From a virus (taxonomy: Duplodnaviria; Caudoviricetes): 62,335 nucleotides of DNA. The position numbers were made by a program, and so were the translations under genes. Below the pieces are notes generated by a model that saw only the letters and a list, made by a program, of their open reading frames with translations, was not told the DNA's origin and made no database searches. Positions 33,094 to 33,179 of the stretch are shown piece after piece (the stretch's first letter is position 1; each line of letters begins with the position of its first letter). The stretch lies in IMG/VR virus record IMGVR_UViG_3300032770_000023, positions 1 through 62,335 of that record; one strand, given 5' to 3'.

Positions 33094-33179
33094 GGAGGGC
33101 GACTAGTTGGCACTAGAACGCGCCTTATAAGCGCGGGTTCTTTCATTGGAACGGGGTCCGATCCCCCCGCCCTCCGCCA
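33094..33179 (+). tRNA. 8/4 allo-tRNA-like gene, anticodon UAU, long variable arm, G73, CCA
   Basis: GGAGGGCG A CTAGT TGGC ACTAG AA CGCGC CTTATAA GCGCG G GTTCT TTCATT GGAAC GGGG TCCGATC CCCC CGCCCTCC G CCA. Confidence 0.82.

Follow-up and report, generated by a model that had tools for sequence, protein, structure and literature searches.

An allo-tRNA(UAU) gene of the published class on a decayed IS1595-family element in a phage

Insertion sequences of the IS1595 family are bounded by terminal inverted repeats and, as described in ISfinder, some carry passenger genes placed between the transposase and the end of the element. In the GC-rich genome of Streptomyces, rare TTA codons in particular genes tie translation to a single tRNA, the bldA tRNA-Leu(UAA). 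Allo-tRNAs have been described, with the UAU group being the most abundant (PMC5389517), and the main text of the same report mentions an allo-tRNA pseudogene overlapping a transposon-related ORF, together with copies whose stems are destabilised. Six UAU to CUA variants of this group failed to rescue an E. coli reporter carrying Ser146TAG and two of them were lethal, and a non-translational role has been proposed for the UAU group; with other allo-tRNAs, Ser was incorporated at Leu codons in E. coli (PMC5389517, main text). The points concerning UAU allo-tRNAs are repeated in passages of a review (PMC7609411). In the literature searched, no paper joining an allo-tRNA with a transposase was found, and, judged by title or the start of the abstract, nothing apparently on point was found for a tRNA as an IS1595 passenger.

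In this study, we analysed a 62,335-base stretch of DNA (hereafter the window), which is a complete virus record rated 100% complete and encodes the large terminase, portal, major head, scaffold and head-closure proteins, a DnaB-like helicase and a helicase-methylase of a phage. ARAGORN called two tRNA genes in the window, tRNA-Asp(gtc) at 32225-32300 on the minus strand and, at exactly 33094-33179 on the plus strand, an 86-nt tRNA-Ile(tat). A sequence-only reading had described the latter as an allo-tRNA of the Mukai type with an 8/4 acceptor branch, a D tetraloop, a long variable arm, G73, an encoded CCA and the anticodon UAU, and this is the cloverleaf found in the minimum free energy (MFE) fold. 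The acceptor stem has 8 bp, the D stem 5 bp with a 4-nt loop, the anticodon stem 5 bp with the loop CUUAUAA, the variable arm 5 bp with a 6-nt loop and the T stem 4 bp, followed by G73 and CCA; the MFE and the centroid fold agree on this cloverleaf, and all 27 pairs are intact. Thus the 12-bp acceptor branch is split 8 + 4 in the window tRNA, as in 37 relatives described below, a long variable arm accompanies a long D stem with tetraloop, and the discriminator G73 is combined with a non-serine anticodon, so that shape, arm and G73/UAU all place the gene in the class to which it had been assigned. Non-cloverleaf structures, whose dominance would have spoken against the reading, did not prevail in either fold. 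The fold energy of -42 kcal/mol was reached by 0 of 200 shuffles (mean -28.98, z -3.83), and the cloverleaf is well beyond chance. The earlier T loop, TCCGATC, is one of two forms of equal energy, since a run of six C allows either a 7-nt loop (UCCGAUC) or a 6-nt loop with an unpaired C, and the UUAUAA of the anticodon loop is self-complementary as written. In the subfamily of the window tRNA the place of U55 in the T loop is taken by C. Ser-type features of the gene include the long variable arm, G73 and the pairs G1-C72, G2-C71 and A3-U70. Rfam returned no match over 33094-33179, whether at the gathering score or at E<=10, and the gene is therefore neither a canonical tRNA (RF00005) nor a tRNA-Sec by that measure, as expected from its 8/4 shape; within the window the Rfam tRNA model matches the tRNA-Asp alone.

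Relatives were collected with a search pattern that combines the anticodon loop with the T arm, which by construction fixes the T stem and anticodon loop and makes them uninformative in that set. The pattern matched 3 viral loci and 37 loci in species-representative genomes, and all 37 genome loci are labelled Acidobacteriota (Terriglobia, Bryobacterales, Acidobacteriales, Solibacteraceae and the like), from which we infer that the host of the phage is probably an acidobacterium. The 37 distinct sequences align to the 8/4 cloverleaf with standard pairs in 98.5% of pair cells (registers slid along the alignment gave 48-58%), and 14 of the 27 pairs have changed on both sides, a count reached by 0 of 500 shuffles. 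The acceptor helix is paired in 98% and the T helix in 100%, the latter being set by the search pattern; the variable arm and the D stem each have four of five pairs changed on both sides. Position 73 is mostly G, with U in four relatives. Several candidates were set aside: a pattern of the anticodon arm alone retrieved canonical 73-77-nt phage tRNA-Ile(UAU) genes in 10 of 11 viral loci, L015 and L016 have merely the T arm in common with the family and are something else, and L089 (genome G079) is an ordinary tRNA-Ser. Few strong matches to the tRNA model were found in 151 sampled genomes of the class; two of these genomes, G079 and G110, are unpublished, and none of the conclusions depends on them.

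The surroundings of these relatives identify the window tRNA as conserved cargo of an IS1595-family insertion sequence of Acidobacteriota. Of 40 loci, 28 have a homologue of the window transposase fragment beside the tRNA and 25 have the zinc-ribbon part, and the tRNA, in either orientation, is always located past the transposase 3' end. Transposase and tRNA are enclosed in 18 of the 40 loci by a 20-nt end motif, repeated in inverse orientation on the two sides and delimiting elements of about 2.0-4.2 kb. Two loci of one genome (L022 and L031) share 3,838 identical bases with 25-bp inverted repeats and target duplications, an IS1-type transposase and a UAU allo-tRNA, and a second within-genome pair shares at least 2,360 identical bases covering transposase and tRNA; the proposal that mobility explains the spread of such genes is supported by the first pair, whose copies are 100% identical, have inverted repeats and target duplications and lie in the same genome. 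The IS1-type transposase of L022 and L031 has 6 ATA in 316 codons, and its homologue in L050 has 8. Passenger ORFs on either side of the tRNA vary from locus to locus, with an ORF starting 25-45 nt after the tRNA in most relatives; DUF5343, P63C, DUF3800 and trypsin-like families were recognised by Pfam, and most passengers belong to no family. Among 20 sampled passenger ORFs Pfam recognised no toxin-antitoxin pair (PhdYeFM stayed below threshold, E 5.8e-4), and the published toxin-antitoxin link was thus not reproduced in this sample.

In some loci the cargo tRNA or a related transposase is accompanied by further tRNA-like genes that are irregular or long, namely L019 4574-4660, L066 1611-1685, L143 5688-5773, L192 4483-4577, L220 4974-5066 and, upstream of the tRNA, L124 and L099, with the anticodons UGC, UAC, UCU, GUC and one reading the stop codon UAA; these neighbours recall the published 'polycistrons of irregular tRNAs'. 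In the viral contigs L013 and L014 the transposase of the tRNA-bearing element consists of two overlapping ORFs (181 + 141 aa with a 44-nt overlap, locus-oriented positions -1824 to -896), which is either a frameshift or a broken gene.

Near the window tRNA there are three IS1595-family pieces. The transposase of the tRNA-bearing element survives as a 3' fragment at 31488-31928 on the plus strand (DDE_Tnp_IS1595, Pfam PF12762, 4.5e-19), comprising the last approximately 139 of about 319 residues and 64% identical to residues 181-319 of an intact relative by tblastn; what is left of the DDE domain (31509-31928) covers profile positions 58-153 of 153. Relatives have the full gene with zinc ribbon and DDE domain, and in the window the N-terminal part was not found, approximately 180 codons being gone. 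The right terminal inverted repeat, matching the family motif at 20 of 20 positions and containing TTGACA, lies at 33819-33838 on the minus strand; further copies of the motif at up to 3 mismatches are absent from the window (0 matches in 100 shuffles), so that of two terminal inverted repeats the left one is missing. Exactly at this IS end a second IS1595-family transposase is cut, of which the first 139 residues remain at 33824-34240 on the minus strand (Pfam PF12760, 4.8e-13), with no ATA codons and 93.5% identity to residues 1-139 of a full-length gene in the viral locus L013. A third, full-length transposase of 349 aa with both Pfam domains and no ATA codons is encoded at 26183-27232 on the plus strand; an imperfect 24-nt inverted repeat lies at 26170-26193 and 28634-28657, and the gene may represent a second, possibly intact IS of the phage. 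The order and spacing of class A elements (transposase, about 1.1 kb, tRNA) are preserved in the window, as is the right IS end. Hence of the term 'phage-borne IS' used in the earlier reading, the complete phage genome and the IS-derived context stand, but the IS copy itself is truncated, having lost its left end and those codons.

Two passenger ORFs adjoin the tRNA in the window, one of 168 aa without a family at 32453-32959 on the plus strand, with weak relatives in the same place in L048 and L045, and one of 101 aa at 33217-33522 on the plus strand, starting 38 nt after the tRNA. A GIY-YIG identity for the latter was rejected as sub-threshold (Pfam E 0.0065, 17.2 bits against a cut-off of 22.6), and a minus-strand ORF at 33410-33730, in frame after the cut transposase, was regarded as spurious in that it has no family and overlaps the plus-strand passenger ORF. 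The tRNA-Asp(GUC) gene (32225-32300, minus strand), a 7/5 tRNA by ARAGORN and Rfam, lies inside the IS-derived stretch, and the same arrangement was observed in L045 (3092-3166, minus) and L065 (616-689, minus), where the gene precedes the allo-tRNA by about 800-890 nt and lies on the other strand; the three tRNA-Asp genes are merely about 70% alike. The window copy has C at position 37 and a C-C mismatch in the anticodon stem, and its anticodon arm (32259-32275) has a perfect 17-nt inverted copy at 32093-32109 on the plus strand, which by itself folds into a hairpin whose 6-bp stem carries the same 7-nt loop. A 20-nt direct repeat (30989-31008 and 35147-35166, 19/20 identical and internally palindromic) flanks the 4.1-kb IS-derived stretch and could be an insertion scar or two phage terminator-like hairpins. 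A promoter scan gave 1 promoter-like site where 1.9 were expected, and none upstream of the tRNA.

About 135 nt before the tRNA are conserved along with it and form a structured leader (32959-33093, plus strand) made up of two covarying helices, obtained with RNAalifold on 19 loci, and a 5-bp pseudoknot-type helix added by eye, followed by a U-rich tract abutting the tRNA. With the added helix 93.6% of cells are paired and 19 of 26 pairs have changed on both sides; 0 of 500 shuffles reached this pairing and slid registers gave 30-41%. From the sequence and the alignment of 23 loci, a 15-codon mini-ORF was read at 32956-33003 on the plus strand, the third and fifth codons of which are ATA. Its start codon shares bases with the stop of the ORF before it (ATGA), it is preceded by a Shine-Dalgarno-like AAGGAA, and its end runs into the 5' strand of the first leader helix; an equivalent Shine-Dalgarno sequence and short ORF, rich in rare codons, occur in most of the 23 loci. 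The leader is the mark of a subfamily, several more distant tRNA-linked loci having other upstream sequence, some with an extra tRNA-like piece. No known leader or riboswitch class (T-box and others, Rfam 15) matched over 32956-33093, and none reached E<=10 in 32000-34000. Contigs of four sequencing runs match relatives of the stretch from about 32995 to 33186, those other than the probable source sample in small shares, and in such contigs stretches without cover carry no meaning; one soil metatranscriptome library has contigs over relatives of leader and tRNA, which is no proof of transcription. Compared with the main text of PMC5389517, the structured leader with its mini-ORF appears to be new.

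The tRNA-linked transposases are rich in ATA at fixed positions. In 22 distinct full-length genes of the pattern-selected set ATA makes up 106 of 7,211 codons (14.7 per 1000), against 80 of 21,821 (3.7 per 1000) in 55 long host ORFs outside the elements, at nearly equal GC3 (0.69 and 0.70). By alignment position, ATA occupies codon 4 in 13 of 23 rows, the # of LKRGx#G in 16 and that of VS#KHL in 14, one of the 23 rows being an unrelated second-type transposase without ATA; ATC or ATT occur in these columns just three times, and truly conserved Ile columns use ATC or ATT with ATA 0-1 times. The window fragment (31488-31928) still has 6 ATA in 139 codons, including LKRGI#G, VS#KHL and AF#ETV, where the ORFs of the phage have a background of 101 in 16,314 (6.2 per 1000). 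Such fixed ATA positions, read from alignments, appear to be new.

An independent set was drawn from metagenomes with the transposase alignment, keeping 80 loci chosen by transposase alone. The tRNA model matches 23 of them (E<=0.001), nearly all just downstream of the transposase, and although acceptor stems, T loops and variable arms differ widely, 19 have the anticodon UAU and 4 UAA; ARAGORN added three UAU, one long UAC, one long CAU and one long tRNA-like gene with the anticodon UUA. UAU-linked genes have on average 4.3 ATA (n=20) against 1.5 (n=14) in genes followed by 2.5 kb or more of sequence in which no tRNA lies, the AT-rich outlier L170 being dropped (Mann-Whitney p=6.6e-5). ATA stands at column 111 in 16 of 20 UAU-linked and 2 of 15 tRNA-less genes, and at column 463 in 18 of 20 and 1 of 15. 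In all four UAA-linked genes TTA stands at columns 111 and 463 and nowhere else, and two short contigs (L107, L113) also show it at these two columns. The gene linked to UAC carries GTA at columns 420, 455 and 463, with ATA staying at column 111 (codon 4). In a midpoint-rooted FastTree phylogeny the UAA group, the UAC locus and a tRNA-less trio are all nested among UAU-linked genes; the trio has ATT at column 111 in 3/3 and Gly or His at column 463. Because the UAA-linked genes are one clade (75-81% identical) and UAC is a single locus, the covariation rests on few independent events. In a set of viral contigs (80 loci, the tRNA model being run on 73 after leaving out two L013/L014 copies and five near-duplicates), model matches were UAU in L171, L179 and L182 and UCU in L192; ATA occupies all three key columns in L171 and L182 and one of them in L179. 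TRNA-less viral genes with GC3 >=0.55 (n=55, some near-identical) have a mean of 0.96 ATA, and L194 is the sole one among them with ATA at the key columns, at all three. There are exceptions on both sides: L194 and L096 have ATA at key columns and no tRNA was found with them, and in L095 and L144 column 463 lacks ATA despite the presence of the tRNA. The switching of UAA/TTA and UAC/GTA with the anticodon appears to be new.

The explanation that we favour, and consider probable, is that a genuine allo-tRNA(UAU) gene is cargo of an IS1595-family element and serves, in intact elements, as a private translational adaptor for the element's own transposase mRNA. The cargo module would comprise mini-ORF, structured leader and tRNA on an element circulating in Acidobacteriota; the phage would have acquired a copy whose left end and two thirds of the transposase have since been lost. 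In an intact element the RNA would putatively be made, charged and used on the ribosome for the transposase mRNA, which keeps rare AUA codons at codon 4, LKRGx#G and VS#KHL, and the amount of transposase made, or its precise sequence, would hinge on the tRNA that the element itself supplies, in the way that UUA codons depend on the bldA tRNA, while the mini-ORF may feed back on tRNA supply. The tRNA thus probably controls how the transposase is made, and decoding of AUA by the UAU cargo tRNA, one part of the earlier claim that it inserts Ser at AUA codons, is indirectly supported through the codon-anticodon covariation with its own transposase; the Ser part received mixed support, identity features being kept and two of the three main ATA sites being hydrophobic where no tRNA is linked. 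In the window the pairing of codon and tRNA cannot operate because the transposase is truncated; with its client gene broken, the intact tRNA may be a leftover or an extra AUA reader. Fixed cognate codons that change with the anticodon give the UAU group a concrete and testable role, a tRNA-gated transposase. If true, this would be a new route of self-control for insertion sequences, a natural example of joint transfer of a gene and the tRNA dedicated to it and a natural source of orthogonal codon-tRNA pairs. The cargo status itself explains how such tRNAs arrive in phages.

Which amino acid would be inserted bears on a rather doubtful alternative, that the tRNA is a missense suppressor charged by SerRS and places Ser at AUA generally, in the proteome of host or phage or in the transposase. 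The Ser-type long arm, G73 and first three acceptor pairs are kept whatever the anticodon, with G73 (or U73) and the long arm persisting across UAU, UAA and UAC scaffolds as for an anticodon-blind synthetase, and the Leu-codon results cited above fit this picture, yet the six CUA variants showed no Ser insertion (PMC5389517, main text). The sites themselves are similarly divided: of 116 distant homologues, 58 have Ser at one ATA column and 55 have Gly at another, but at columns 111 and 455, two of the three main ATA positions, relatives lacking the tRNA have a hydrophobic residue (I, V, F, M, Y or L), and the nested tRNA-less subclade has its ATT at column 111. A profile test of 101 ATA occurrences gave no residue a positive score, Ile being least bad at -4.8 per occurrence and Lys best per column at -5.0, with Ser outside the best five candidates per occurrence, whereas control codons strongly recovered their own residue (ATC Ile +274, ATT Ile +105, AGC Ser +118; 15 control codons or codon sets in all); ATA therefore lies mainly at positions tolerant of change. 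TilS was above cut-off in 4 of 4 host genomes tested, and AUA should therefore be readable as Ile without the allo-tRNA; general Ser insertion would be costly to hosts that keep TilS and use ATA at the low rate given above. The prediction for the inserted residue is consequently mixed, Ser by identity elements and Ile by the character of the sites, and charging by IleRS via the anticodon would also explain the inactive CUA variants. A bolder form of the adaptor model, which we put forward tentatively as having perhaps one chance in a few, holds that a SerRS-type scaffold has a drifting anticodon tracked by sentinel codons AUA, UUA or GUA, that active or inactive enzyme would arise only via this private recoding, and that the rare-codon mini-ORF overlapping a pseudoknotted RNA would sense and limit a potentially toxic tRNA.

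It is improbable, in our judgement, that the module is a non-translational tRNA-like RNA, such as a processing signal for passenger ORFs, a decoy or target of tRNA-directed toxins or a recombination site. The negative reporter assays and the lethality of two variants are consistent with such a role (PMC5389517, main text), as are C55 in the T loop, the structured leader before the tRNA and the highly variable passenger ORFs that adjoin the module with a start 25-45 nt past the tRNA; but the anticodon is kept across very different scaffolds and covaries with transposase codons, neither of which a processing signal or integration site predicts, and the published assay would miss anticodon-dependent charging because the anticodon was altered and only Ser or Ala was scored. 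For the window alone the chances are about even that the tRNA is a leftover of a dead IS, of no use to the phage, a reading compatible with the adaptor role in intact elements. In its favour, the element has lost its left end and some 180 codons of its transposase, the transposase next to it is cut, and the parts in common with the L013 phage contig are all IS-derived, bar one weak short match. Yet all tRNA pairs and the leader are intact, the ORFs of the phage use ATA more often than host ORFs (6.2 versus 3.7 per 1000), and many phages carry canonical tRNA-Ile(UAU) genes.

Taken together, the gene at 33094-33179 is a real allo-tRNA(UAU) gene of the published class (Mukai 2017, PMC5389517), residing on a decayed IS1595-family element in a putatively acidobacterial phage. 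With the group described in the main text of that report it shares the 8/4 branch, the long D stem with tetraloop, the long variable arm, G73 and UAU, as well as acidobacterial origin and a tie to transposon-related genes; it differs from the destabilised copies and the pseudogene mentioned there in being fully paired, and the fixed cognate codons, the anticodon-codon switching and the leader are features of the relatives studied here that are absent from that main text. Canonical phage tRNA-Ile(UAU) genes have the same 17-nt anticodon arm, as found in those 10 of 11 viral loci, and are likewise phage-borne readers of AUA, but they are 73-77-nt 7/5 tRNAs, mostly in tRNA arrays, without the 8/4 long arm and not IS cargo. 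The element resembles other IS1595 members with passengers in its transposase with Zn_ribbon_IS1595 and DDE_Tnp_IS1595 domains, its inverted repeats and its extra genes before the end; unlike other passengers, the module, of which the window holds a copy on a truncated element, is a constant structured RNA with a tRNA matching fixed codons of the transposase. The likeness to bldA, a rare codon in chosen genes and dependence on one tRNA, would make the system one that works alike rather than a member; unlike bldA, the tRNA has a non-canonical shape and may bring either Ser or Ile, and tRNA and client gene travel together on a mobile element.
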